Shown here one piece after another: positions 3,001-31,034 of a stretch of DNA of 47,319 bases; position 1 is the stretch's first letter, and each line of letters opens with the position of its first letter. Made by a program: the position numbers and the translations under genes. This DNA is from Oculatellaceae cyanobacterium bins.114. GTDB taxonomy: Bacteria; Cyanobacteriota; Cyanobacteriia; Elainellales; Elainellaceae. The stretch is taken from assembly GCA_033764315.1 (NCBI GenBank), contig JANRJA010000006.1, positions 1 to 47,319 on the forward strand, read 5' to 3'. The notes under the pieces were generated by a model. That model worked only from the letters and a program-made list of their open reading frames with translations. It did not search any database and was not told the DNA's origin.

Positions 3001-5324
3001 AGGAACTGCAAACACAACAAAAAGAGTTAACGGAAACCAACAAGCGATTAGAGCAACAAGCCCAATCCTTGAAGGCGTCTGAAGAACTGTTGAAAAATCA
3101 GCAAGAACAGTTGCAACAAACCAACGAAGAGTTGGAAGAAAAAGCCGAACTGTTGGCACTGCAAAACCGCGAAGTAGAGCGCAAGAACCGAGAGATCGAA
3201 CAAGCCAAGCGATCGCTCGAAGAAAAAGCCGAGCAGCTCTCTCTGACCTCCAAATACAAGTCTGAGTTTCTGGCTAACATGTCGCACGAGTTGCGAACGC
3301 CGCTCAATAGTTTGTTGATCTTGGCACGGTTATTGTCTGATAACCCTGAAACCAACTTGACCGACAAACAGGTGGAGTATGCTCGCACGATCTACTCCTC
3401 TGGTAACGATCTGTTAGGACTGATTAACGATATTTTGGATCTTGCCAAGATCGAGTCTGGAACCATGTCAGTCCAGATTGATCAGACGCTGTTTAGCACA
3501 TTGCGACAACACATGGAACGCACCTTCCAACAAGTCGCTCAAGATCGTAAACTCGATTTTGTGGTGCAGTTAGATGAGACCTTGCCGCGTGCCATTTACA
3601 CTGACTCAAAACGACTGCAACAAGTTCTCAAAAACCTGTTAGCCAATGCGTTCAAATTTACTGAACAGGGACAAGTTCGATTAGATATAACAACCGCGAT
3701 CGAAGGATGGAGTTCTGAAAATAACACGTTAAACCAAGCTGCAACGGTCATTGCTTTTACGGTGATTGATACGGGTATTGGCATTCCCTCAGATAAGCAA
3801 AAAATTATTTTTGAAGCCTTCCAACAAGCCGATGGCACCACATCTCGTAAATATGGCGGCACTGGATTGGGGCTATCCATTAGCCGAGAAATTGCTCGGT
3901 TGTTGGGAGGTGAAATCACCCTGCATAGCGAGCTAGGCCAAGGCAGTACCTTTACCCTCTATCTGCCGTTGACCTATGTGCCCCTTGTAACAAATGGCTC
4001 TGGCTCTGAAGTCAGTCTCAGAGATGAACACCGCTATCGCAGTCAAGGTGAGATGGATTTGTTTATGCCATCCTCCCACTCCCTCTTTTTGCCTCAATCT
4101 CTAACCACATCACCCGAAGTCGAGGACGATCGCGAAACTATTCAAACGGGCGATCGCACTCTGTTGATTATTGAAGATGACGTTCCATTTGCCCGACTAT
4201 TACTCGACATGGCGCGTCAGCAAGGGTTTAAGGGATTGGTCGCCATTCGCAGTGATGTCGGTTTAGCCCTGGCACAGGAATATAAACCTACCGCCATCAC
4301 CTTAGACATTCGTCTACCAATTATGGATGGATGGACCGTGCTCGATCGCCTCAAACACAATCCTGAAACCCGACACATCCCCGTTCACATTATGTCGGTC
4401 GAAGAAGTGCGACAACGCAGTTTGCATCAAGGGGCGATCGCTTATTTGCAGAAACCAATTGATGCCGAAGCCTTATCCAAAGCTCTGAGTGACATCAAAC
4501 AATATGCTGAGCGAGCCGTCAAAAACCTGCTTGTGGTCGAGGATGACGAACTGCAACGACAGGGTATCGTCAATTTGATTGGCAACAGTGATGTCAGCAC
4601 AACGACCGTTAGCACGGGGGCAACCGCACTAGAGCATCTGCAAACTGGAAACTTTGATTGTCTGGTGCTCGACCTGACATTGCCCGATATGAGCGGCGTG
4701 GATCTGATTCAACGGATTCAACAAGATCCTGAGTTGCGGCAGATTCCCATCATTGTTTACACCGGGCAAGATCTGACCTCGCAACAAGAATCAGAACTTC
4801 AAAAAGTTTCCACATCGCTGGTGGTTAAAAGTGCGCGATCGCCTGAGCACCTGCTCGACGAAACGTCTCTATTTTTACATCGGGTGCAGTCCAACTTGCC
4901 CAATGAGCAACAACAAATGTTAGAGCGACTGCGACAACGTGATCCAGTTTTAGCTGACAAAAAGATCTTGATTGTAGATGACGATGTTCGCAATATCTTT
5001 GCTCTGACCAGTTTGTTAGAGCGATATCAAATGGAGGTGCTCTATGCCGAAAACGGACGCGATGGCATCAACGTCTTGCAAACCACACCTGACATTCACA
5101 TTGTTCTCATGGACGTGATGATGCCAGAAATGGACGGCTATGAAACGATGTATGCCATTCGACAGATTAGCCAGTTTAAATCTCTGCCTATGATTGCACT
5201 AACTGCAAAAGCCATGAAGGGCGATCGTGAGAAATGTATTGATGCCGGAGCGTCTGATTACATCACCAAACCCGTTGATCAAGAACAATTACTGTCACTG
5301 CTACGAGTGTGGCTATACCAATAG
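3..5324 (+). CDS. Hybrid sensor histidine kinase: poly-HAMP array, GAF, coiled coil, HisKA, HATPase and three receiver domains (5'-partial, runs off the window start)
   Basis: The frame is open from base 3 ([12 protein letters not shown]...). It has 92-aa repeats (WKDLTD.VN.MAG.LT.QVRNIA...), an H-box [16 protein letters not shown] boxes ([23 protein letters not shown]), and three REC domains with intact Asp (LDIRLP, LDLTLP, MDVMMP). Confidence 0.95.
54..2400 (+). repeat. Tandem 276-bp coding repeat (HAMP units), at least 8 units within the window
   Basis: The TGGAAAGAC motif recurs at 54, 330, 606, 882, 1158, 1434, 1710 and 1986, with the variant TGGCGTGAC at 2262, an exact 276-nt period. 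Confidence 0.95.
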
Positions 5325-9329: not shown

Positions 9330-10688
9330 TTAACCCATCAGTTGATGTGCTAATCGGTTGTGTTTTTCCACTAATGTTTCCAGTTCAAGCGTGGTTAGTC
9401 GTCCTTGATCCACCACTTTTCGACCGTTGATAAAACTGTAATCTACCGTGTTCACCTGACAAAAGATCAGGGCAGCCACGGGATCATGGAGGGCACCTGC
9501 AAGAGCAGGGCGATCGAGGTTAATGGCAATAAAATCTGCCGACATTCCTGGAGCCAGGTAGCCAATATCATCTCGTCCTAAGACCTTTGCCCCTCCCAGT
9601 GTCGCCAATTCTAAAACGTCGCGAGCCGTCATCGCCGCTGCCTCGAGTTCACGCACCCGTGCCATAAGAAAGGCAGTGCGGGCTTCATTCAACAAGTTTG
9701 ATGTGTCATTCGAGGCTGAGCCATCCACCCCTAACCCCACTGGGACTTTGTGACTGAGCATCTGACGAATGGGAGCCATGCCACTGGCCAGACGCATATT
9801 ACTACAGGGACAATGGGCTACCCCAGTGCCTGTCTTGCCAAAGGCTTGAATGGCGCGATCGTCTAACTGCACACAGTGGGCGTGCCAGACATCCTCGCCT
9901 AGCCAACCTACTGATTCTGCATAGTCACCGGGTGTCATGCCAAAGGTAGCTAAGCTGTACTCGATATCTGACTTATTCTCGGCAAGGTGCGTATGTAAAC
10001 GAATACCAGGGTGCGATCGCGCTAATGCCGCCGATTCTCGCATTAAATCAGGTGACACCGAAAAAGGAGAGCAGGGAGCCAGCGTGATGCGTAGCATGGC
10101 ATGGCGCGAATTGTCATGATATTGCTCAATTAGCCGTTGGCTATCTTGCAACACATGGGCTTCTTTCTCAACAACGGTGTCGGGGGGCAGTCCTCCCTGG
10201 CTCTGACCCACACTCATACTGCCTCGACTAGCATGAAACCGCAGCCCGATCGCTTGCACCGCTTCAATTTCATCATCTAACGTGGTGCCATTGGGGAAAA
10301 TATACAGATGATCACTTGCAGTTGTGCAACCTGACAACATTAACTCGGCGGCTGCCATCTGAGCACTGATAAACACCGACTCTGGCGTAAGATTTGCCCA
10401 AATCGGATAAAGCGTTTGCAGCCAGTGGAATAAGTCGCAATTTTGAGCCGCAGGAACTGCACGGGTGAGAGTCTGATAAAAGTGATGGTGAGTGTTGACC
10501 AAACCAGGAAGGACGACATACCGACCCTGTAGATCTAGCACATCGTCTGCAGTTTGAGGCAACTCAGCGGTTGTTCCAACCTGCTCAACAATGTTGTCTC
10601 GCACGAACAACCCCCCATTTAGGATTTCTCGCCGGGATGCATCCATCGTTACTAGAGTATGAATATTTTTAATCAACAAAGTAGACAT
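9330..10688 (-). CDS. 8-oxoguanine deaminase-like amidohydrolase (AtzB/GuaD-related)
   Basis: PGLVNTHHHFYQTLTRA metal-binding motif, APCSPFSVS, HTHLAEN, HCPCSNMRLASG and GLGVDGSASND, all typical of 8-oxoguanine deaminase family proteins. Confidence 0.88.
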   Translation of the reverse strand: MSTLLIKNIHTLVTMDASRREILNGGLFVRDNIVEQVGTTAELPQTADDVLDLQGRYVVLPGLVNTHHHFYQTLTRAVPAAQNCDLFHWLQTLYPIWANLTPESVFISAQMAAAELMLSGCTTASDHLYIFPNGTTLDDEIEAVQAIGLRFHASRGSMSVGQSQGGLPPDTVVEKEAHVLQDSQRLIEQYHDNSRHAMLRITLAPCSPFSVSPDLMRESAALARSHPGIRLHTHLAENKSDIEYSLATFGMTPGDYAESVGWLGEDVWHAHCVQLDDRAIQAFGKTGTGVAHCPCSNMRLASGMAPIRQMLSHKVPVGLGVDGSASNDTSNLLNEARTAFLMARVRELEAAAMTARDVLELATLGGAKVLGRDDIGYLAPGMSADFIAINLDRPALAGALHDPVAALIFCQVNTVDYSFINGRKVVDQGRLTTLELETLVEKHNRLAHQLMG

Positions 10689-13423: not shown

Positions 13424-13572
13424 AATCTTGAGGGCCATCCTCATGCGTATATGATATTGAGCATTCCACTGGCTCAATGGATCGAATACCTTAATTTGAA
13501 TACCTTATAAAAGTAAAATTAATTCCCATTCTTAGAAATGACCACTTGAGGTCAAACAGTAAAATAACTATC

Positions 13573-13689
13573 GCCTCTAGGGTTCCGGCTGAGCATCAAT
13601 GTTGGCAGTGCTGGTCCGAGAGAGGCAAGCTGGTTAAAATCGCTATCCGTGATTTAAACAAGCTACACGGCGGGATAAAAGCCCGGGAG
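13573..13689 (+). ncRNA. Guanidine-I riboswitch (ykkC-yxkD, subtype 1) aptamer
   Basis: It has the conserved blocks CTAGGGTTCCG, CTGGTCCGAGAG and ACACGGCGGGATAAAAGCCCGGGAG. P1 is GCCTCT/AGAGGC, with a P1 extension hairpin at 13588-13609 and P2 at 13628-13664. A TAAAAT -10 candidate at 13560-13565 would place the start of transcription at the aptamer 5' end. Confidence 0.93.
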
Positions 13690-13739
13690 AAGTCAGCCAT
13701 CTGGTTTAAAGGTGGGGCTTTCCTGGGCTTTGTTGTATT
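13678..13739 (+). terminator. Riboswitch expression platform: terminator hairpin overlapping the aptamer 3' end
   Basis: AAAGCCCGGGAGAAGTC pairs with GGCTTTCCTGGGCTTT, with an inner stem CCATCT/AGGTGG, followed by T-rich GTTGTATT. It is mutually exclusive with aptamer P3. Confidence 0.75.
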
Positions 13740-13777: not shown

Positions 13778-14737
13778 ATGACTGCATCGATTCAAGCGAA
13801 CACTGTTGAGCCAATTAACTTTGTGATCAATCAACCCGCACCGGGCAATCTCGATGTTCGTTGGATTCACGGCTCCATCTCAGCCAAGCACAACACGGAT
13901 CCTGACATTCAAGTTCACGCCTATAACGACCATACCTACATCTTGCGTCAAAACATGGCGGTGCATTACGAAGCACCGTTTATGTTTCTCTTATTTGGCA
14001 ACGATCGCGCCATTTTACTCGATACAGGATCAACGCGATCGCCTGAGTTCTTTCCATTGCGTCAAACGGTGGATGACTTGATAGATCAATGGTTAATCAA
14101 AAATCCGCGTGACAATTACTCCCTGGTGGTTGCCCACACCCACCTGCATCGGGATCACTTTGAGGGCGATCCTCAGTTTTTTGACCGCCCCAATACCCAG
14201 ATCGTCGGTCACAGCTTGGCTGAAACGATCGAGTTTTATGGGTTTCAAGATTGGGCAAATGAAGTTGTGCCATTTGACTTGGGGGGGCGAGTCTTGCAAG
14301 TGATGGGCACTCCCGGTCATGAGGATGCAGAAGTGTCGATTTATGACCCCTATACGCAAATCTTTTTCACAGGAGACTTGCTCTACCCGGGTCGCCTCTA
14401 CATTCGTGACTGGAATGCCTTCCGCAACAGTATCGATCGAATCGTTGCCTTTACAGATACCCACCCAATCACGCACCTACTCGGATGCCATGTGGAGATG
14501 TCGATCTATCCTCGGTTGGACTACTTAATTCGCACCAACTATCAACCCTATGAACGTCCCTTAGAAATGACTGTGGCACAGTTGCATTCGGTCAAAGCGG
14601 CGATCGCCCAGGTTAATGGTCAACCGGGAATCCATGTCTTTGACGACTACATCCTCTACAACGGCGTCCCTGATCGCTACTTTAGTTACGAAAATATGGA
14701 CCCCAATGCGGCCCCCGGCGATCTTCGACCTGCTTAA
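13778..14737 (+). CDS. Metallo-beta-lactamase (MBL) fold metallo-hydrolase, riboswitch-controlled
   Basis: LLDTG, HLHRDH (HxHxDH), TPGH, TGDLL and GCH motifs. ATG 13778 has GAGGGA upstream; the track start at 13712 falls inside the terminator. Confidence 0.9.
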   Translation: MTASIQANTVEPINFVINQPAPGNLDVRWIHGSISAKHNTDPDIQVHAYNDHTYILRQNMAVHYEAPFMFLLFGNDRAILLDTGSTRSPEFFPLRQTVDDLIDQWLIKNPRDNYSLVVAHTHLHRDHFEGDPQFFDRPNTQIVGHSLAETIEFYGFQDWANEVVPFDLGGRVLQVMGTPGHEDAEVSIYDPYTQIFFTGDLLYPGRLYIRDWNAFRNSIDRIVAFTDTHPITHLLGCHVEMSIYPRLDYLIRTNYQPYERPLEMTVAQLHSVKAAIAQVNGQPGIHVFDDYILYNGVPDRYFSYENMDPNAAPGDLRPA

Positions 14738-14801: not shown

Positions 14802-16001
14802 ATGAACCCATCTCGTCGTCTGATTTTGCCTCGTCGAAGTGTGATTCGCGGGTTACTTTCCTTGGGAGCCTTTGGTGTCACTTCCCAGTTCTGGACAGGA
14901 TGTACGGCTCCCTCGTCTACCTCCTCTTCTGGCGAATCCGCTAGTCCATCCACCGCTAGCATCGAACCCATGACCATCGGGTTTATCTACGTCGGCCCTA
15001 AAGATGACTATGGTTATAACCAGGCGCACGCAGAAGCCGCTGCCCGCATGGCAAGTGCATTTCCCTGGATTAAGCTCGTTGAGGAAGCCAGCGTTCCTGA
15101 AACAACCGCCGTTCAGGAGACCATGCGGAACATGATTGAGCAAGATGGAGCCAAGGTTATCTTTCCAACCTCTTGGGGTTATTTTGACCCCCATAGTCTA
15201 AAGCTGGCCGCAGAATATCCAGAGGTGCAGTTTTTCCACCCCAACCATCCATTAGAGCCGTCCCATCCTAAAAATGTCGGCACCTACTTTAGTGCACTGA
15301 TGGAGCCTGCTTATCTAACAGGCATTGTGGCAGCCTCGATGTCTAAAACGGGTAAGCTCGGATTTGTGATTCCCAAACCGATTCCAGTGGTCTTACAAGA
15401 AGTGAATAGTTTCACGTTAGGGGCAAAAAGCATAAATCCTGACATCACCGTTCAAGCCATCTTTACCGGAGATTGGTCACTGCCGCTCAAAGAGGCAGAG
15501 GCCACTAATAGCCTGATAGACCAACAAGTGGATGTTGTAATTACACGAGTAGACAGCCCAAAGACGGTGATCACAACCGCTGAACAACGGGGGATCTATA
15601 GCTGTGGCTATCATGTCAATGAGCAAAGTATTGCCCCTAAGGGATTTTTGACTGGGGTTGAATGGAACTGGGAGCAGATCTATAAAAACTATGCTGAGTT
15701 GTTTCAAAATGGCAAAACGTTGACTAATGGAGGGGTTCCTCAGGTTGTTGCGGGGGGGCTGAAGGAATCATTTTCCAAGATTTCTGACTATGGCGTAGCT
15801 GTGAGTCCTGAGGCAAAGGCGGCTGTGGATCAAGCTAAACAGCAACTCATCTCTGGAGAATTGACCATCTTTAAAGGTGAGCTAAAAGATAACAAAGGTA
15901 ATGTGGTTATTCCATCTGGAGAGGCTTATCAACCAGGAGATGCTCGCCTCAACTCGATTGATTGGTTGGTTGAGGGTATAGAAGGACAACCGACTAGTTA
16001 A
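14802..16001 (+). CDS. BMP/PnrA family ABC substrate-binding lipoprotein with Tat-like signal
   Basis: N-terminal RRSVIRGLL twin-arginine-like motif and lipobox WTGC, then GFIYVGPKDDYGYNQAH and other BMP family blocks. ATG 14802 is 64 nt after the MBL stop. Confidence 0.9.
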   Translation: MNPSRRLILPRRSVIRGLLSLGAFGVTSQFWTGCTAPSSTSSSGESASPSTASIEPMTIGFIYVGPKDDYGYNQAHAEAAARMASAFPWIKLVEEASVPETTAVQETMRNMIEQDGAKVIFPTSWGYFDPHSLKLAAEYPEVQFFHPNHPLEPSHPKNVGTYFSALMEPAYLTGIVAASMSKTGKLGFVIPKPIPVVLQEVNSFTLGAKSINPDITVQAIFTGDWSLPLKEAEATNSLIDQQVDVVITRVDSPKTVITTAEQRGIYSCGYHVNEQSIAPKGFLTGVEWNWEQIYKNYAELFQNGKTLTNGGVPQVVAGGLKESFSKISDYGVAVSPEAKAAVDQAKQQLISGELTIFKGELKDNKGNVVIPSGEAYQPGDARLNSIDWLVEGIEGQPTS

Positions 16002-16903: not shown

Positions 16904-18511
16904 TTAGCGATTCGCGGCTTCAATTTGTCGCACAACAGTTAATGCCGAATAGCTGACGCCTGCGGTGCCTTCGCCGGGGTGGGTAGAGTCGCCAACGAGC
17001 CAGAGGTGTTGAATTGGCGTGCGATTCGCAAAACCAAACGGGCCAAACGTGGGGATGCGTTGTCCGACACCGCCGACGACACCGCGATCGCGCCCTGTGA
17101 AGTGGGCAAAGGTTCGGGGGGTGGCGGCTTCCTGGTGCACCAATGTGTTAGGAGTCAGATCAAAGAATTGAGATAGACGGGCGATCGCTTCCTGAGTATA
17201 GTGTTGCTTCAGATCTTCGTAGTCTTGGCATTGCCACCACAGCGTTGGATCAGTGAAAGAGGAGGCAGTAATCGTTGCTTTTCCCGCTGGGGCACGACCA
17301 TCACCGGGGTGGCTAACAGAGACAAACAGGGAGTTGTTTTCACAGATGGGGCCGTTGTAGTCATAGAGAAATTGCAAATGGGGCGGGCAGTCAATCGGAA
17401 TGGCCGCTTGCTCAACACCGAGATAGACGACAAACGCACCCGACGAGGGGGGCAATTGATCGACTCGGCGTTGATAGCCGATGGGAGCCGCTTCTCCCAG
17501 GAGTTGCATCAGGTTTTGCACAGTGACATTAGCCACGACCTGATCCGCCTGTTCTGTCCAGATTTCCCCTGTGTTTTGATTACAGATGGTTACGGCGGTG
17601 GCTTTGCCGTTTTCAGTGTGGATCCGCTGCACTGTGTGACGCATTAATAATTTGCCCCCATCCCGCTCAAGCGCATCTACGAGGCGATCGCTCAACACTT
17701 GCATACTTCCCTGCAAATGCCATAGCCCTTGGGGTGCCTGAGAGACTCCCAGAGCCGTTGCGGCATACAGTAAGGCGGTTTCCTCTGCATTCACTTGTGA
17801 GTAAAGCTTAAGTTGCAAATCGAGGAATGTTTTGAGGCGGCGATCGCCCGCTAGCCCATAATCCCGCAGCACTTGACCCACGGTTGAAAAGGTGTGGGGT
17901 AAGGTCAGCAATGTGTCGGGACGAACCGCTTGAGTTAGTTGCCAGAAATCCCAGATGTTACGGGGCGGCAAGACTGGATCTCGTGCTTGAAAAGCCCAAC
18001 TGTGGCGAAATAAATTTGCCATCAGTTGCCAAAAGGCTTCACTTCCAGGAAACTGCTGCTGTCGTTCAGCTTGCCATTGCAGGGGGTTACGCCAAACCCG
18101 AATCGGATCAGTTTCACCGGGCAAGTAAACAGCACACGCCGGATCGCAGGGAGTCGCGTCAGGGGGGGCAATGCCTAGCTCTGAAAAGATGCGGTGATGA
18201 ATGCCACCCGGTTCTAATCCTGCCACTTGGGTGGCACCCACATCAAAGGTAAAGCCCCGACGCTTAAAGGTAGAAGCACATCCTCCTGGGGCGATCGCTT
18301 GATCGAGCACCAAGACCGAATAGCCCCGACGTGCCAATAAAGCCGCTGTGGTCAATCCACCAATCCCGGCCCCGATCACCACAACGGTTTGAGGTGACAT
18401 ATTGGTTGCAATAACTGGTGGTTGGCTAGGTAATGGACTTGGTCGTTGATTGGGGATCGGACTGGGGGTGCGTTGGCTTTGCCGTGCCTCAAAGGAGTAA
18501 TCGCGGGTCAT
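16904..18511 (-). CDS. crtD: C-3',4' carotenoid desaturase (myxoxanthophyll pathway)
   Basis: FAD motif VIGAGIGGLT, GGCASTFKRRGFTFDVGATQVAGLEPGGIH and C-terminal VGDSTHPGEGTAGVSYSA. An alternative start is ATG 18400. Confidence 0.88.
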   Translation of the reverse strand: MTRDYSFEARQSQRTPSPIPNQRPSPLPSQPPVIATNMSPQTVVVIGAGIGGLTTAALLARRGYSVLVLDQAIAPGGCASTFKRRGFTFDVGATQVAGLEPGGIHHRIFSELGIAPPDATPCDPACAVYLPGETDPIRVWRNPLQWQAERQQQFPGSEAFWQLMANLFRHSWAFQARDPVLPPRNIWDFWQLTQAVRPDTLLTLPHTFSTVGQVLRDYGLAGDRRLKTFLDLQLKLYSQVNAEETALLYAATALGVSQAPQGLWHLQGSMQVLSDRLVDALERDGGKLLMRHTVQRIHTENGKATAVTICNQNTGEIWTEQADQVVANVTVQNLMQLLGEAAPIGYQRRVDQLPPSSGAFVVYLGVEQAAIPIDCPPHLQFLYDYNGPICENNSLFVSVSHPGDGRAPAGKATITASSFTDPTLWWQCQDYEDLKQHYTQEAIARLSQFFDLTPNTLVHQEAATPRTFAHFTGRDRGVVGGVGQRIPTFGPFGFANRTPIQHLWLVGDSTHPGEGTAGVSYSALTVVRQIEAANR

Positions 18512-21307: not shown

Positions 21308-21401
21308 GACTCGGACCTACGCGATTACAACGCCCAAATCTTGTCAGGACCGGAAGGTAGCAGCAATACGGGATGCTTGGAATAGGCGTGGACTCCGGGT
21401 C
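21308..21401 (+). ncRNA. ffs: Signal recognition particle RNA (small bacterial type, 4.5S)
   Basis: Conserved domain IV TCAGGACCGGAAGGTAGCAGC. Terminal pairing GACTCGGA...TCCGGGTC is followed by a T-run, and an extended -10 TGnTATGCT lies at 21292-21300. Confidence 0.93.
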
Positions 21402-21487
21402 TCTTTTTTGGTAGGCAGTAGGATAAATTTACTCCTATGCTAGAGCTAATACCCTACCGCCAACCGTATTAAGGAGTGGTTTTAGCA

Positions 21488-24406: not shown

Positions 24407-24598
24407 CTTTTCCAAAGCTACTCGACGCTTTTTGTTGGTGTAGTTTCAAGTCTCGATTTTTCCCAAGATGGGCTAAAAAGCGGCTGGTTATCACCCTAAG
24501 TAGCTGATTCAGTTCAACCTGAGCAGAGACTTCAGCCATTTTTGCCCCCTGCAATATTGCGTGTTGATGCAACCCCGATTGGGCTGTTAGGAGGTTTT

Positions 24599-25957
24599 AT
24601 GTCTAATTTTTCACATTTGACTCGTCGTAAGTTTTTGGCAACCGCTGGAGCCTCAGCCACAGGAGCTATTCTCTTGCAAGGCTGTTTAGGCAATCCCCCT
24701 GCGTCTATGGTTGGGGCAGTTGAGACTACAGCGGCTCCTGCATCCCCTGTGGCGGCTGGAGATACACCTGAAACGACTGCCGTTAAATTGGGCTATATCC
24801 CCATTGTGGAATCGGCTCCTCTAATCGTCGCTCAAGTTAAAGGCTTCTTTGCAAAATATGGCATGACACAGGTTGAAGTGTCGAAGCAAGCCAGTTGGGC
24901 GGCTGCACGAGACAACGTCATTATTGGGTCTCAAGGAGGCGGGATTGATGGTGGACAATGGCAAATGCCCATGCCTCATTTGATTACTGAGGGCATCATC
25001 AGTAATGGAAATAAGGTGCCGATGTATGTTTTAGCTCAGTTAAATACTCAGGGAAATGGCATCGCGATCGCCAATGTCCACACGGGCAAAGAGATGGGCT
25101 TGAATCTGTCTAATGCAGCGGATTATGTTAAGGGATTTCAGGCTACCAACGGTCGTAAGTTTAAGGCAGCGTATACCTTTCCCAATGCCAATCAAGATTT
25201 CTGGATTCGTTATTGGTTTGCGGCAGGTGGCATTGACCCTGATCAAGATATCGATTTGTTGGCAGTTCCCTCAGCTGAAACTGTGCAAGGGATGCGGAAT
25301 GGCACGATGGATGCCTTTAGCACAGGCGACCCTTGGCCCTACCGGATCATCACCGATGGCATTGGCTTTTTGGCAGCGTTGACGGCTGAGATGTGGAAGT
25401 TTCACCCTGAGGAATATTTGGCAATTCGGGCAGATTGGGTGGATGCTAACCCCAAAGCCACTAAAGCATTGCTCAAAGGCGTTATGGAAGCTCAGCAGTG
25501 GTGTGATAAACCCGAAAACCGGGCAGAACTGGTTCAAATCGTGGCAGGACGCAACTTCTTCAACATTCCCAAAGAGGTTTTAGAGTCTCCCTACAACGGC
25601 AAATACACAATGGGAGATGGCAAGCCCGAAGTCAATGATTTCAAGCTAGGAGCTTTGTATTGGGCAGATGATTTGGGCAGCGTGTCCTATCCCTATAAGA
25701 GCCATGATCTGTGGTTCTTGACAGAAACCCTGCGCTGGAATTTTCACAATGGGGCGATCGCTGATATTGACACCGCTAAGAAATTAATCGATCGCGTCAA
25801 CCGTGAAGATCTCTGGCGCGAAGCGGCTCAGGAAGCAGGTTTCTCAGGTATTCCTAGTGGTACTTCTAGAGGGATTGAAACCTTCTTTGATGGCATCAAG
25901 TTTGATCCAGAAAACCCAGAAGCATACTTAAACAGCTTGCAGATTAAGCGGGTATGA
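24599..25957 (+). CDS. cmpA: Bicarbonate ABC transporter BCT1 substrate-binding lipoprotein
   Basis: TRRKFL Tat signal and LQGC lipobox. [13 protein letters not shown] and [15 protein letters not shown] are CmpA-type, whereas NrtA has GFIALTD and GAHIL. GGAGG precedes ATG 24599. Confidence 0.9.
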
Positions 25958-26009
25958 GGCTTGGTCATTTTTCTCTTCTTTTTTCCTTCTTTTTATTTAC
26001 GGAGTAACT

Positions 26010-26852
26010 ATGGTTGCAAACGCTAAGACTCAAACTGGTAATAGTGCGCTGATTACCAACCTCCAAGCCTATTGGAAGAAAAATTCTGAAAATATTGTGT
26101 TGCCGCTGGTGGGTATCTTAGGGTTCCTCGCGATTTGGCAATTAGTCTCATCGGCGGGTCTCACGAAACTGCCAGGACCCTTGAGCATCTGGACCGATGA
26201 GCGAACTCGCGTGCTTTTGTTGTATCCCTTTTATGACTTTGGTGGACTAGATAAAGGATTGTTTTGGCAAACCCTGGCGAGTTTAGGTCGCGTTGCCCAG
26301 GGGTACTCCGCTGCGGCGATCGTGGGGATTGGGTTAGGGGTGCTCGTCGGCACTAATCGCATCCTCAACAAAGCCCTTGATCCTATTTTTCAATTTCTGC
26401 GAATGGTTGCTCCTCTAGCGTGGGTGCCGATCGCCCTTGTTGCACTGCAACAAAACCAGCCCGCCGCTATCTTCGTGATTTTTATCACCGCTCTGTGGCC
26501 CATCTTAATTAACACCGCTGAAGGCGTCCGTCAGGTTCCTCAAGACTACATTAACGTGGCTCGTGTATTGCGGATTTCTCGCTGGAAGTACTTCTCTAAA
26601 GTGCTCATGCCCTCTGCATTGCCCTACATCTTCACCGGATTGAGAATTGCAATTGGTCTGGCATGGTTGGCGATTATTGCAGCTGAAATTGTGATGTCTG
26701 GTATCGTTGGCATCGGTTTCTTTATCTGGGATGCATACCAACAAAACTACGTCAGTGAAATTATTCTTGCTGTGGTTTATATCGGGGCAGTCGGTCTGTT
26801 GTTAGACAAACTTATAGTCTTCATTCAACGACTTATTTTGCCACAAGGATAA
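26010..26852 (+). CDS. cmpB: BCT1 permease
   Basis: NrtB/CmpB permease blocks (DKGLFWQTLASL, FQFLRMVAPLAWVPIAL, GLRIAIGLAWLAIIAAE), in an operon with cmpA. Confidence 0.88.
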   Translation: MVANAKTQTGNSALITNLQAYWKKNSENIVLPLVGILGFLAIWQLVSSAGLTKLPGPLSIWTDERTRVLLLYPFYDFGGLDKGLFWQTLASLGRVAQGYSAAAIVGIGLGVLVGTNRILNKALDPIFQFLRMVAPLAWVPIALVALQQNQPAAIFVIFITALWPILINTAEGVRQVPQDYINVARVLRISRWKYFSKVLMPSALPYIFTGLRIAIGLAWLAIIAAEIVMSGIVGIGFFIWDAYQQNYVSEIILAVVYIGAVGLLLDKLIVFIQRLILPQG

Positions 26853-26957
26853 CCGAGTCCTGAGTAGGGAGCGATGAGTAGATGGGTGAATGGGCTGGTG
26901 GGTGCATGAAATAACGCAATGATGAGCTTCACCCTCTTACGCCCTAACCATCTTTTC

Positions 26958-27027
26958 GCACAGGTGTTTTTGCACAGGTATTGTCATACAGACGTTTTCA
27001 CACAGACGTTTTCACACAGACGTTCTT
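26958..27027 (+). repeat. 14-bp tandem repeat, 5 units, in the cmpB-cmpC spacer
   Basis: GCACAGGTGTTTTT, GCACAGGTATTGTC, ATACAGACGTTTTC, ACACAGACGTTTTC, ACACAGACGTTCTT. Confidence 0.7.
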
Positions 27028-27126
27028 GCGTAAACGCGATTAATTGTGCCTCTCCCTACCTGCTCTCTCGCTTCTTTGTATTCTTTTCTCTTCCTTCTTT
27101 TTCCCTTCTTCTATTTTTTTTCACCT

Positions 27127-29127
27127 ATGTCTACTTTTGTTGCTGTTGATCAAATCGAAAAAGTCTTCCCCCTTACAGGAGGCGGTCAATACATCGCTCT
27201 CAAAGGCATTGATTTAGAAATCAAACAAGGCGAATTTATCTCCTTAATTGGTCACTCTGGTTGTGGCAAATCGACCCTGCTAAACATGATTGCTGGGCTT
27301 GATTTACCAACCGATGGACTAGTGACATTAGAGGGCAAACGTATTGATAGCCCTGGCCCCGATCGGATGGTGGTGTTTCAAAACTACTCGCTGTTGCCCT
27401 GGTTAACTGTGCGAGAAAATATTGCACTGGCCGTGGATGAGGTCTGTAAAGGCTTACCTAAATCAGAGCGGCGTGATCTGATTGAAGAACATATCGATTT
27501 GGTAGGTTTACGTCATGCGGCAGATCGGCAACCGGGGCATCTATCGGGTGGTATGAAACAACGGGTGGCGATCGCCCGGGCGTTAGCAACTCGTCCAAAA
27601 CTGCTGCTGCTGGATGAACCGTTTGGGGCATTAGATGCTTTGACTCGCGGTAATCTGCAAGAACAACTGATGCGGATTTGCGAACAATATCATGTCACCT
27701 CCGTGATGGTGACACACGATGTGGATGAAGCAGTGCTGTTATCCGATCGCATTGTCATGTTGACCAATGGGCCCGCCTCTAAAATTGGTGGCATTCTGGA
27801 TGTAGATATTCCTCGTCCCCGTAAACGCATGGATGTGGTCAGTCACCCCAGCTATTACAGCTTGCGATCGGAGTTGATCTACTTCCTCAACCAACAAAAG
27901 CGCATCAAAAAATTGCAAGCCCGCAAACAAGTGGCGATCGCCCATCACGGCTTAGAAAAAGTCAATCTCGAAATTGGTTTTGTGCCTCTGACTGCCTGTG
28001 CACCAGTGGTTGTTGCCAAAGAAAAAGGCTTCTTCACAAAGCATGGATTAGACGATGTGCATCTCGTGCGCGAAACCAGTTGGCGCGGCATTGTCGATGG
28101 CATCACAGGGAAGTATCTAGATGCGGCTCAAATGCCTGCGGGAATGCCTGTTTGGCTCTCAGCCGGAGGACACCAGGAAACGCCAACGCCAGTAGTGAGT
28201 GCCTTAACGATGACTCGCAATGGCAACGCCATCACCCTCGATCGCAAGTTTTACGACCAGGGCATTTATTCCGCCAAAGATATCAAGCGCATGTTGCTAG
28301 AGTCAGTCGATCGGCAACACACCTTTGGTATTGTTCACCCCTCTTCTATGCACAACCTGTTGTTGCGCTATTGGTTGGCGGCGGGCGGCATTGACCCCGA
28401 TCGCGATGTGACTCTCAAAAATCTGCCTCCGGCTCAAATGATTGTAGATTTAAAGGCAGGCAGCATTGATGGTTATTGCGTGGGTGAACCCTGGAATCTG
28501 CGGGCAGCGATCGAAGGGATTGGTTTTACCGTTGCCACCGATCTAGAGATTTGGGAAGGACACCCCGGCAAGGTGTTAGGCGTTCGGGAGGAGTGGGCAA
28601 ACCAATATCCCAATACTCACATTGCTCTAGTCAAAGCGTTGCTGGAAGCGTGCCGCTATTGCGCCGATGAAGCTAATGCAGAAGAAATTCGTACCATTTT
28701 GGCACAACGGGAATATATTGGCACCAGCGTCGATTACATTCATTTAGGCGACCCCAATCGACTGGTCTGCAACTTAGAAAGCCCCATGCGGGAATATGCT
28801 CACCACTTGTTCTATGGTCAGGGAGTCAATCGCCCCAGCCGTAGCGAACATTTGTGGATGATGACCCAAATGGCTCGCTGGTCAGATATTCCTTTCCCAC
28901 GCAACTGGTTAGAGGTGCTAGAGCGGGTTTGTCGGGTTGATGTGTTTAGCACTGCCGCACGGGAGATTGGCATTCTCGATGTGAAATATCATCGGGGACC
29001 GATTCAACTGTTTGATGGTATTCCTTTTGACTCTGATGAACCGATCGCCTATCTCAATAGCTTGTCGATTAAACGCGATTTTAGCGTGGCAGAAGTGGCG
29101 ATCGGCTCTCGTCGAATAGCGGCATAG
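27127..29127 (+). CDS. cmpC: BCT1 ATP-binding subunit with C-terminal regulatory solute-binding-like domain
   Basis: GHSGCGKST, LSGGMKQR and LLLLDEPF, plus a C-terminal NrtA-like domain. Start is ATG 27127. Confidence 0.9.
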   Translation: MSTFVAVDQIEKVFPLTGGGQYIALKGIDLEIKQGEFISLIGHSGCGKSTLLNMIAGLDLPTDGLVTLEGKRIDSPGPDRMVVFQNYSLLPWLTVRENIALAVDEVCKGLPKSERRDLIEEHIDLVGLRHAADRQPGHLSGGMKQRVAIARALATRPKLLLLDEPFGALDALTRGNLQEQLMRICEQYHVTSVMVTHDVDEAVLLSDRIVMLTNGPASKIGGILDVDIPRPRKRMDVVSHPSYYSLRSELIYFLNQQKRIKKLQARKQVAIAHHGLEKVNLEIGFVPLTACAPVVVAKEKGFFTKHGLDDVHLVRETSWRGIVDGITGKYLDAAQMPAGMPVWLSAGGHQETPTPVVSALTMTRNGNAITLDRKFYDQGIYSAKDIKRMLLESVDRQHTFGIVHPSSMHNLLLRYWLAAGGIDPDRDVTLKNLPPAQMIVDLKAGSIDGYCVGEPWNLRAAIEGIGFTVATDLEIWEGHPGKVLGVREEWANQYPNTHIALVKALLEACRYCADEANAEEIRTILAQREYIGTSVDYIHLGDPNRLVCNLESPMREYAHHLFYGQGVNRPSRSEHLWMMTQMARWSDIPFPRNWLEVLERVCRVDVFSTAAREIGILDVKYHRGPIQLFDGIPFDSDEPIAYLNSLSIKRDFSVAEVAIGSRRIAA

Positions 29128-29399
29128 TTCATCAAGCAGCGTCTCTTTGAGAGAGCAAATTAGGCGGGTGACGTGGTGCGAGCACCTCGCTCGTGGGCAA
29201 GATGCCCGCACTACAACCATCCACGAATTGTACTAACTTAAGAATGGTGAGCAACGCCCACCCTAAAGTTACTCCAAGGTTCTTGGCGATTGATGAACGC
29301 TTGTTTCGGTACTCTTCATTTGCACATTGATGTATTCACCTCTGACCACTGAGGTTTTGATCCTATCCCTCCTAGTTTTTTTACCGTGATACTCAGCCT

Positions 29400-30107
29400 A
29401 TGTCTACGCTATTTGACTTGATTGTAAAAGGGGGTCCGATCATGATTCCGATTATGGGATTGTCTGTCGGAACCATTGCCTGTGCGTTTGATCGGGCCTG
29501 GTTTTGGTATCGTCTACTCAGCCAAGAAAAACAAATTGTTCATGATGTGCTGACAGCCGCCAAAACTGATTTAGAGGAAGCTGCTGCGATCGCTGAAAAT
29601 GCTCAAAACTTACCGATTGGTCGCTTTCTCTTAGCCCCCTTGCGATTGCAAACTCCTAGCCCTGAAACATTTCGACTGGCAATGGAAACCACGGCAGATG
29701 AGGAATTTATGCAAATGTCAAAGGGCAACACCATGCTAGAAGCAGGCATTACCATTGCACCTTTGTTAGGGTTGCTCGGTACTGTAACCGGGTTAATTAT
29801 CACCTTCAACAACATTAATATTGGCGGCGGAGGGGGTGCCAATGTTGACCTCTCTAAAGCTGCCGCTGGTATTGCAGAAGCGTTAATTACAACTGCAGGG
29901 GGAATGATTGTTGCGATCATTGCTGCTTCTTTATTGCGGGTGTTTTTAAGATTGCAACAACAACAGGTTGATTACTTCGCCCAAGTTGGAGGCAAGTTAG
30001 AGCTGGTGTATCGCCAACATTGGTATGAACCGCTCTTTCAACACAGCCAGTATGCAACACCTGATTCAAATGAATCTGAATTGTTAGCCAGTTCTGGGCA
30101 AAAATAA
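29400..30107 (+). CDS. MotA/TolQ/ExbB proton channel family protein
   Basis: KGGPIMIPI, APLLGLLGTVTGLI and GIAEALITTAGGMIVAI, with three TM helices. Confidence 0.9.
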   Translation: MSTLFDLIVKGGPIMIPIMGLSVGTIACAFDRAWFWYRLLSQEKQIVHDVLTAAKTDLEEAAAIAENAQNLPIGRFLLAPLRLQTPSPETFRLAMETTADEEFMQMSKGNTMLEAGITIAPLLGLLGTVTGLIITFNNINIGGGGGANVDLSKAAAGIAEALITTAGGMIVAIIAASLLRVFLRLQQQQVDYFAQVGGKLELVYRQHWYEPLFQHSQYATPDSNESELLASSGQK

Positions 30108-30191
30108 CACGCCTAACCCATTGGTGCGGCTGATGTATTGTCGTTCATTCATTTCACCATTTCTATGTTGTCGTCTAACCCTCCCACCCAA

Positions 30192-31034
30192 ATGTCTACA
30201 GCTACTATTCCACAATCCGTCTCAGACCAATTTTCTACAAGTCCTTCGTTTCTCACGTTGAGCAACGTCACTAAAGTCTACCCAACGCCATCGGGTATGA
30301 ATGTGGTGATCAAAGACATTGACCTGACGGTGCAAGAAGGGGAGTTTATCTGCATCATTGGACACTCAGGCTGTGGCAAATCAACTTTGTTAAACACAAT
30401 TTCTGGATTTGCTTTGCCTGATGCAGGAGAAGTGTTGTTGCGGGGTAAAAAAGTCACCCAGCCTGGGCCCGATCGCATGGTGGTGTTTCAAAACTATGCC
30501 CTATTACCGTGGTTGACTGCCTTTGAGAACGTCTACATCGCGATCGACTCGGTGCACCCTCGTAAACTCGAAGCCGAAAAACGGGCGATCGCTCGTGATC
30601 ATTTGGCAATGGTGGGGTTGGGTGATGCAATGGATAAGAAACCTCCGCAACTCTCTGGGGGAATGAAGCAACGGGTCGCGATCGCCCGAGCATTAGCTAT
30701 TCAACCCGAAGTGCTGATCTTAGATGAACCCTTTGGGGCACTGGATGCCATCACCAAAGAAGAACTACAAGAGGAACTCTTGAAAATCTGGCAAGAGCAT
30801 CGCTGCACTGTGTTGATGATCACTCACGACATTGATGAGGCTCTGTTCCTTGCCGATCGCTTGGTGATGATGACCAACGGACCTGCGGCAGGGATTGGGG
30901 AAATTCTCGATATTTCATTCCCTCGTCCTCGCGATCGCGCCCAAATTATGGAAGATCCGCACTACTATGATTTGCGAAACCATGCCCTCGACTTTCTCTA
31001 TAATCGCTTTGCTCACGATGACACAGCCGATTAG
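30192..31034 (+). CDS. cmpD: BCT1 ATP-binding subunit
   Basis: GHSGCGKST, LSGGMKQR, LILDEPF and C-terminal YYDLRNHALDFLY. The start is uncertain (30165 or 30192). Confidence 0.87.
   Translation: MSTATIPQSVSDQFSTSPSFLTLSNVTKVYPTPSGMNVVIKDIDLTVQEGEFICIIGHSGCGKSTLLNTISGFALPDAGEVLLRGKKVTQPGPDRMVVFQNYALLPWLTAFENVYIAIDSVHPRKLEAEKRAIARDHLAMVGLGDAMDKKPPQLSGGMKQRVAIARALAIQPEVLILDEPFGALDAITKEELQEELLKIWQEHRCTVLMITHDIDEALFLADRLVMMTNGPAAGIGEILDISFPRPRDRAQIMEDPHYYDLRNHALDFLYNRFAHDDTAD

Follow-up and report, generated by a model that had tools for sequence, protein, structure and literature searches.

An MBL-fold metallohydrolase family with a probable place in bacterial guanidine biology

Why would a cyanobacterium place a metallo-beta-lactamase (MBL)-fold hydrolase behind an RNA sensor of guanidine? 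The question is raised by the MBL gene at 13778..14737 (+) of a 47,319-nucleotide stretch from Oculatellaceae cyanobacterium bins.114 (assembly GCA_033764315.1, contig JANRJA010000006.1, positions 1 to 47,319), hereafter the window. That free guanidine is a metabolite was recognised only recently, and two routes for its degradation are known. A first-pass annotation, made from the letters of the window alone, had proposed the protein as a candidate guanidino-compound hydrolase, and this proposal has gained ground: two unrelated riboswitch classes precede members of the family, and gammaproteobacterial members occur in guanidine gene clusters. Because these are three independent links in three phyla, we consider it very probable that the MBL family belongs to guanidine biology. 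Far more tentatively, we propose that it serves specifically in the response of bacteria to free guanidine, and that guanidine itself, or a very small derivative, would be the compound it hydrolyses.

The first step is to ask whether the RNA in front of the gene is a guanidine sensor. The element at 13566..13691 (+) matches the Rfam model of the guanidine-I (ykkC subtype 1) riboswitch aptamer, RF00442, over its full length (model positions 1-107 of 107) with 74.9 bits against a gathering score of 63. Its core blocks CTCTAGGGTTCCGGCTG, CTGGTCCGAGAGA and ACACGGCGGGA.AAAAGCCCGGGAGAAG are those of the riboswitch preceding gdmH in the same genome, and because of this identity we regard the window aptamer as a true subtype 1 element, that is, a predicted guanidine sensor of this subtype. 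The expression platform that follows (13678..13739, +) is a terminator hairpin at 13678-13731, whose 5′ arm re-uses the 3′ half of aptamer stem P3, and a U-rich tail, GUUGUAUU; the hairpin folds at -34.7 kcal/mol (z -3.65), with none of 200 shuffles as stable. The same P3-sharing terminator is found at the cyanobacterial locus L002 and ahead of the genome's own gdmH, and the predicted overlap between P3 and terminator is the usual layout of an ON switch. A consensus scan also located a promoter-like site (ATGACC, 16 nt spacer, TAAAAT; 9 of 12 matches) at 13538..13565 (+), ending one base 5′ of the aptamer, to which we attach little weight because such sites are no more numerous in the region than in shuffles. 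The ATG of the MBL gene lies 87 nt 3′ of the aptamer with a GAGGG Shine-Dalgarno sequence ahead of it, which makes it the first regulated gene, the position that the first-pass annotation had given it. After a spacer of 64 nt comes the ATG (14802) of a gene for a substrate-binding protein, and since the next genes lie on the opposite strand, the regulated unit consists of these two genes.

What kind of protein does the switch control? The open reading frame, free of stops, encodes 319 aa and matches Pfam Lactamase_B (PF00753) with E 5.1e-13 (49.8 bits against a gathering score of 22.7). All four motifs of the binuclear metal site that had been read from the sequence are in place: HLHRDH at residues 122-127 (window 14141-14158), TPGH at 178-181 (14309-14320), GD at 199-200 (14372-14377) and GCH at 236-238 (14483-14491). 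The HxHxDH, H, D, H ligand pattern of the superfamily is thus complete, and its seven ligands (H122, H124, D126, H127, H181, D200 and H238) are invariant in all 18 aligned active relatives from three phyla. By inspection of the sequence, the N-terminus MTASIQANTVEPINFVINQPAPGNLD has no hydrophobic stretch, which agrees with the earlier call of no signal peptide and with a cytoplasmic location. The AlphaFold model (pLDDT 89.4) has the alpha-beta/beta-alpha sandwich of the MBL superfamily. Its best match in VIA-align is LACTB2 (Z 18.0), with other MBL-fold proteins tied at Z 14-17.5: B1 lactamases reach 17.4-17.5, and flavodiiron proteins, persulfide dioxygenases and glyoxalase II lie at 14-16. 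The alignments with LACTB2 and the B1 lactamases span 197-207 residues at a root-mean-square deviation of about 3 A. Foldseek and VIA-align returned generic MBL matches from which no subfamily stands out, and the ESM Atlas search gave solely unnamed 'MBL fold metallo-hydrolase' clusters.

Three known identities were considered for the protein and rejected. The glyoxalase II equivalog TIGR03413 scores 37.6 bits against an NCBIfam cut-off of 200.8, over residues 118-228 only, and the best match in the PDB sequence search, the glyoxalase II 1xm8, is weak (E 1.2e-7 over 113 residues). A secreted beta-lactamase of class B1, B2 or B3 would be at odds with the absence of a hydrophobic N-terminus and with identities of 10-18%. 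A GdmH-type enzyme is excluded by the lack of a PF00491 match, and the real gdmH of this genome lies on another contig (C251). Glyoxalase II (GloB), LACTB2, the B1/B3 beta-lactamases and persulfide dioxygenase do share the fold (Z 14-18) and the HxHxDH...H...D...H ligand set, but the MBL protein differs from them in its low identity (10-21%), its GloB score and the lack of a secretion signal, and from known MBL-fold hydrolases in some 40 extra N-terminal residues with an invariant W-x-H-G. Judged by these comparisons, the family forms an MBL subfamily of its own, without a close relative that has been characterised.

Is the association with guanidine restricted to this genome? A word-indexed homology search retrieved 2660 proteins at E ≤ 0.001 and 297 clusters (50% clustering) at E ≤ 1e-30, and a scan of our genome collection gave 58 loci, 16 of them cyanobacterial, 32 actinobacterial and 10 gammaproteobacterial; open reading frames in high-GC loci were called with a GC3 filter. 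The best match in the 50%-cluster library, P0125 (605 aa), contains two matched stretches and may represent two family members fused in tandem. Actinobacterial relatives, 52-58% identical to the window protein, lie directly behind a riboswitch of another class, guanidine-III. Rfam (RF01763) finds it at 9 of 13 actinobacterial loci, on the same strand and directly ahead of the MBL gene, with 40.7-47.7 bits against a gathering score of 36; 3′ of the aptamer come a GGAG and then the GTG or ATG start codon. A covariance model (R1) built from these nine copies, all MBL-linked, matched 21 of the 33 actinobacterial genome loci and none of 22 cyanobacterial or gammaproteobacterial loci. It also matched 23 of 80 metagenome loci (23 of 72 without those of cyanobacterial or gammaproteobacterial type), each time with its 3′ end no more than 62 nt ahead of the point where the MBL match starts, or overlapping that match by at most 3 nt. 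Because R1 was built from MBL-linked copies, matches found by this model only are weaker evidence. Rfam upheld 8 of the 12 metagenome matches that were re-tested, the weakest four (L153, L157, L162 and L165) falling under the gathering score, so that guanidine-III copies upheld by Rfam ahead of the MBL gene number 17 in total. In 7 R1-negative actinobacterial genome loci and 20 R1-negative metagenome loci, Rfam detected no riboswitch. On the family tree the guanidine-III copies fall inside one large actinobacterial clade (44 of 70 rows) of Streptomycetaceae and Streptosporangiaceae.

The actinobacterial genomes also bear on what the enzyme might do. Five of them carry exactly two guanidine-III matches each, one before the MBL gene and one before an SMR/Gdx exporter gene, although the exporter-side match of G066, at 34.2 bits, is under the Rfam cut-off of 36. 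DUF1989 (CgdAB) was not found in three of these five genomes, and the best GdmH-like matches of the five are only 35-37% identical, one genome having none. The gene 3′ of the MBL gene is convergent at four of seven loci (L026, L015, L027 and L033), the other three having no clear downstream call, and the actinobacterial gene is, by this layout, monocistronic behind guanidine-III. An enzyme that is induced alone, alongside an exporter, most simply removes the inducer. The actinobacterial pattern, a single and seemingly cytoplasmic enzyme that guanidine would induce together with an exporter, in genomes that often have no other known pathway, therefore favours guanidine removal; among the substrates that had been suggested for the window protein, the monocistronic gene behind its switch favours guanidine itself.

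A third link comes from marine Gammaproteobacteria, where the order HupE/UreJ_2-like membrane protein, active MBL, MBL paralogue is kept at 10 of 10 genome loci (L045-L054) and at three metagenome loci (L174, L176 and L177). In the three paralogues aligned, all seven metal ligands are replaced and many other invariant residues are kept. By inspection, both copies have N-terminal hydrophobic segments that resemble a signal or an anchor, and for this reason they are probably periplasmic; the HupE/UreJ_2-like protein ahead of them has a periplasmic domain of about 200 aa. The tandem arrangement, and the fact that one copy has lost its seven ligands, suggest a periplasmic heteromer with one dead subunit. 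In this respect, and for the gammaproteobacterial pair alone, there is an analogy with metformin hydrolase, a heteromeric, Ni-dependent ureohydrolase with a guanidine-type substrate, which is built from a pair of paralogous subunits and has a different fold (PMC11399263). As a hint, the HupE signature (H..P.GLDH) would fit an enzyme that requires Ni or Co, like GdmH.

Guanidine genes lie around this unit at several loci. A GimABC-like ABC importer, whose binding protein is 41% identical to the GimA of the window genome, follows at 3 of the 10 genome loci (L045, L049 and L050) and at L176. Allophanate hydrolase is encoded nearby in L050, L051, L053 and L054, and a carboxylase then follows in L051 and L053. 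On the G004 contig, a 2OG-dioxygenase (mgdH-like), a 211-aa protein, two DUF1989 genes, the carboxylase (TIGR02712, 1735 bits) and allophanate hydrolase lie on the upstream side of the MBL unit, with one TonB-receptor gene in between, in the gene order of the methylguanidine/guanidine operon described in PMC12508155. An Rfam search of the gammaproteobacterial loci found no riboswitch. The pair is not a replacement for CgdAB: DUF1989 pairs occur in four of five genomes searched, in G004 on the same contig. Comparison of gene neighbourhoods, which the first-pass annotation had put forward as a check, has thus placed guanidine-III before the actinobacterial gene and a GimABC-like importer and carboxylase genes beside the gammaproteobacterial ones.

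Within the Cyanobacteria themselves the link is narrower. The MBL gene has a patchy distribution: of the 57 genomes in the order to which the window belongs, 16 have it, and the other genome of the same genus lacks it. Among 14 cyanobacterial loci, guanidine-I is intact only in L002 (protein 87% identical), at 73.3 bits. L001 (protein 88% identical) has a guanidine-I-like copy at 4791-4920 (G040:C36:12259-12388) that scores 46.5 bits against the gathering score of 63, with six changes at positions invariant in the three other aptamers compared and the terminator kept; this element would be either a decaying copy or a variant with altered ligand specificity. At the same locus, a gene for cyanuric acid amidohydrolase (AtzD equivalog, NCBIfam 469.7 bits, cut-off 360) lies divergently, upstream of the riboswitch-like element and the MBL gene. 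The three switch-bearing cyanobacterial genomes form one small clade (SH-aLRT 89), and our own guanidine-I covariance model, R2, added nothing new in 96 loci.

Such a distribution invites the suspicion that the window riboswitch came to lie before the MBL gene by a recent regulatory accident devoid of functional meaning. The confinement of guanidine-I to the three closest cyanobacterial relatives, one copy being degenerate, and the patchiness of the gene are what would be expected of an accident; the actinobacterial relatives, however, captured guanidine-III independently and the gammaproteobacterial ones cluster with guanidine genes, so that we hold this explanation to be very improbable indeed. 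A chance arrangement is excluded because the order riboswitch-MBL recurs in L002 and a second riboswitch class precedes the actinobacterial relatives.

How might the window unit work? Under the reading that we tentatively favour, guanidine bound by the guanidine-I aptamer would hold P3 closed, which would block the terminator and allow transcription of the MBL gene and of the binding-protein gene. In the enzyme, a metal-bridged hydroxide would attack the guanidinium carbon, and the substrate, either guanidine or a very small derivative that also triggers the switch, would yield urea and ammonia. The binding protein would pass its ligand on to an ABC importer of Bmp type, of which the genome encodes two paralogous systems at other sites. 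Substrate, products, metal and transporter partnership are what we infer; what is observed is the presence of the riboswitches, the order of the genes, an intact metal site and the recurrence across phyla.

A little more speculatively, guanidine-degrading enzymes might include a third class that is not homologous to the others, and the family would then be an MBL-fold 'guanidinase'. The guanidine-III regulon of Actinobacteria would have it as its principal enzyme, next to the Gdx exporter. In the cyanobacterium of the window, it would be paired with a purine-binding-protein scaffold re-tooled for guanidinium capture by Asn-to-Asp/Glu changes, and the two would serve, with an existing ABC importer, as a second assimilation module independent of GdmH.

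The binding protein (14802..16001, +; 399 aa) bears on this question. It is an exported lipoprotein of the Bmp/PnrA family (Pfam Bmp, 1.7e-36), whose N-terminus, MNPSRRLILPRRSVIRG...FWTGC, has the twin arginines of a Tat-like signal and a lipobox, and no permease gene adjoins it; it follows or neighbours the MBL gene at nine cyanobacterial loci. Its best solved relative is AtzT (6pi5, E 7.5e-55), which binds guanine at 110 nM and also 2-hydroxyatrazine, holding the ligand between Tyr45 and Trp194 with hydrogen bonds from Ser97, Glu165, Asn218 and Asn220 (PMC6834077). When these pocket positions were mapped by hand from the HMMER alignment, the aromatic sandwich and the Ser were found to be kept (Y72, W225 and S124 for Tyr45, Trp194 and Ser97). 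AtzT Glu165, Asn169, Asn218 and Asn220 correspond to V196, E200, R249 and D251, Asn169 being a second-shell residue and the other three ligand-contacting. E200, R249 and D251 are invariant in six of six MBL-linked orthologues, position 196 being V, L or I. Because four pocket residues differ from AtzT, the ligand of the window protein is probably other than guanine. GimA binds guanidinium through an acidic, aromatic pocket (PMC12704784), and by analogy the acidic and aromatic pocket predicted here would suit guanidinium as well. Two paralogues, 57-60% identical (G000:C87 and G000:C21; L193:1312-2499 and L195:1309-2508), are each followed by a BPD_transp_2 permease gene and have their own sets of pocket residues; the AtzT-like proteins of this genome thus appear as a small paralogue family with diversified ligands. 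Since both paralogues have a permease of their own, the window copy is an orphan binding protein that could use the transporter of a paralogue.

Several points weigh against guanidine as the substrate. A second guanidine hydrolase would be redundant in the two cyanobacteria with an intact switch, because both already have a riboswitch-controlled pathway; in the window genome this is a gdmH-ghaA-ghaB-gimABC cluster behind a second guanidine-I riboswitch on contig C251, and with this complete cluster present the MBL protein cannot be the only guanidine hydrolase of that genome. In the other cyanobacterium, G047, the pathway is cgdAB. The gammaproteobacterial copies, periplasmic in appearance and placed beside an importer and a cytoplasmic carboxylase pathway, fit the extracellular release of guanidine better than its destruction. 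AtzT, the nearest solved relative of the binding protein, takes planar heterocycles (guanine, 2-hydroxyatrazine), and the scaffold of the window protein, with R249 in the pocket, allows such a ligand equally. Switches are also far from universal: of the 16 gene-bearing genomes of the order, 11 have none, two an intact and one a degenerate copy, the remaining two being unjudged as the 5′ end of the gene falls at a contig end. No switch was found at 12 of 33 actinobacterial genome loci or at 57 of 80 metagenome loci, and switch-less copies stand amid genes unrelated to nitrogen (OYE/HxlR, P450, pyridine-nucleotide disulfide reductase/TauE). Finally, hydrolysis of a guanidinium group is not known to us for any enzyme of the MBL fold, and the fold search yields generic MBL matches only.

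Much of this would be accommodated if the substrate were a guanidino compound in conjugated or cyclic form, or else a planar N-heterocycle related to such compounds, with guanidine as the product of the enzyme or as a co-occurring signal. Guanylurea, N-acylguanidines, creatinine-like or imidazolone rings, guanidinohydantoin, other guanine-oxidation products and aminotriazines are candidates. The binding protein (in Gammaproteobacteria, the TonB receptor) would import the compound, and GdmH or the carboxylase would consume the guanidine set free. The cyanobacterial and gammaproteobacterial patterns appear to suit a guanidine conjugate or related heterocycle equally well or better, because complete pathways are already there, the binding protein is of purine type and the gammaproteobacterial copies look periplasmic; the purine/triazine-type binding protein in the window likewise keeps cyclic or conjugated guanidines open as substrates. 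Its kept aromatic sandwich and changed hydrogen-bonding residues point the same way, as do the full guanidine pathway present in every closely examined guanidine-context genome outside the Actinobacteria, the position of the gammaproteobacterial copies, with a TonB-dependent receptor gene next to them and an importer of guanidine type downstream, and the cyanuric acid amidohydrolase gene divergent from the MBL gene of L001. There is also a precedent in riboswitch-controlled enzymes that make guanidine from methylguanidine (PMC12508155).

The Actinobacteria are difficult to bring under this explanation, since their gene stands alone behind guanidine-III with no transporter, in genomes of which three in five lack DUF1989 and none has a close GdmH, and it would make little sense to induce an exporter and, at the same time, the further release of the toxic compound that it exports. 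Guanidine riboswitches, moreover, are selective for free guanidine (Battaglia et al., PMC5340920). For these reasons a conjugate or heterocycle substrate, although the main rival, seems to us rather unlikely, and hydrolysis of guanidine itself remains the reading that we tentatively prefer.

An explanation that leaves guanidino compounds aside has also to be weighed. The protein could be a stress or detoxification hydrolase or dioxygenase, such as a glyoxalase II-like thioesterase, a persulfide dioxygenase or a lactonase, which would have come under the control of guanidine in some lineages because this compound signals a stress. The weak glyoxalase II matches (NCBIfam and 1xm8) would fit, as would the position of switch-less cyanobacterial relatives behind an old-yellow-enzyme gene with an HxlR regulator, and the mycothiol transferase, disulfide reductase and TauE sulfite exporter around the MBL gene at two actinobacterial loci. 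Persulfide dioxygenases (ETHE1-like) do appear in the fold search, at Z 15.4-15.5, level with many other MBL proteins, and a sulfur-type gene context is confined to three actinobacterial loci, which have no switch or are different in other respects. The GloB equivalog cut-off was missed by a wide margin (37.6 against 200.8 bits). A generic stress role is not easily reconciled with three independent links to guanidine, each in another phylum, and the gammaproteobacterial unit is embedded among genes for guanidine import and catabolism; we judge such a role improbable.

At two of those actinobacterial loci, L031 and L032, which have no riboswitch, the MBL gene lies among genes for a mycothiol S-transferase, a DyP peroxidase, a pyridine-nucleotide disulfide oxidoreductase and a TauE sulfite exporter, a context that looks sulfur- or thiol-related; both sit on a long branch of the tree. 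L036, which shares only the oxidoreductase with them, carries an R1 guanidine-III match.

How would an MBL-fold enzyme acting on guanidine compare with the systems already described? GdmH (Sll1077) is a Ni-dependent guanidine hydrolase of the arginase family, and like the MBL protein it stands behind a cyanobacterial guanidine-I riboswitch and is a cytoplasmic hydrolase with a binuclear metal centre (PMC12704784). The two differ in fold (PF00753 against PF00491), in the absence of HypA/HypB-type maturases next to the MBL gene and in their binding proteins, of Bmp/AtzT type here and of NitT/TauT type in the GdmH system. The carboxylase, CgdAB and allophanate hydrolase, together with MgdH/MgdL, are catabolic genes under guanidine riboswitches, like the MBL gene (PMC12508155). 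The carboxylase pathway, however, depends on ATP and biotin and needs several enzymes, whereas the MBL protein would be a single-step hydrolase homologous to none of the components. The cyanobacterial family to which the window genome belongs holds both guanidine pathways, because relatives of the window genome place guanidine-I before cgdAB rather than gdmH. In G047 the switch (L095, G047:C67:56157-56283) precedes cgdAB (two DUF1989 genes), and the same order is found at L096 (G011:C385); a second guanidine-I of G011 precedes a gene cut by the contig end. The statement of the first-pass annotation that known guanidine hydrolases lie outside the MBL fold agrees with the arginase-family assignment of GdmH (PMC12704784), and the MBL protein matches neither that family nor DUF1989.

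Has this family been noticed in guanidine research? A full-text search found no paper linking it to guanidine, although the gene tables of riboswitch surveys may list the gene uncommented. In the searched text of the guanidine papers PMC12704784, PMC12186494, PMC12623156 and PMC12508155 the terms lactamase, MBL and glyoxalase are absent, as is lactamase from that of PMC7266159, and the ykkC-III passages of Weinberg 2010 name only emrE and speB. A family that stands behind two riboswitch classes and in the guanidine clusters of a third phylum is the type of lead that yielded the guanidine carboxylase, CgdAB, GdmH and MgdHL. If the MBL protein degrades guanidine, it would be a third such enzyme, with a fold unrelated to arginase-family GdmH and to the carboxylase/CgdAB pathway, and would bring new chemistry to the MBL fold. 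It would also explain how Streptomyces and its kin, with an exporter and often no known pathway, handle guanidine. If instead it releases guanidine, it would point to a so far unknown natural source of this compound.

Some further features of the window deserve mention. About 3 kb upstream of the MBL gene, 9330-10688 (-) encodes an 8-oxoguanine deaminase (NCBIfam equivalog, 698 bits, cut-off 532), with genes for a beta-carbonic anhydrase, a cupin and an AraC regulator nearby. Guanidine has been proposed to arise from guanine oxidation (PMC12623156). We do not count the deaminase in the unit, and its proximity may be a coincidence, because it is not conserved beside the MBL gene in L002. Elsewhere the window carries ordinary cyanobacterial housekeeping functions: a CrtD carotenoid desaturase gene at 16904-18511 (-), the signal recognition particle RNA at 21308-21404 (+; 59.3 bits) and, at 24542-31034 (+), an NrtA/CmpA-type ABC transporter cluster composed of an NMT1_2 binding protein, a permease and two ATPases.

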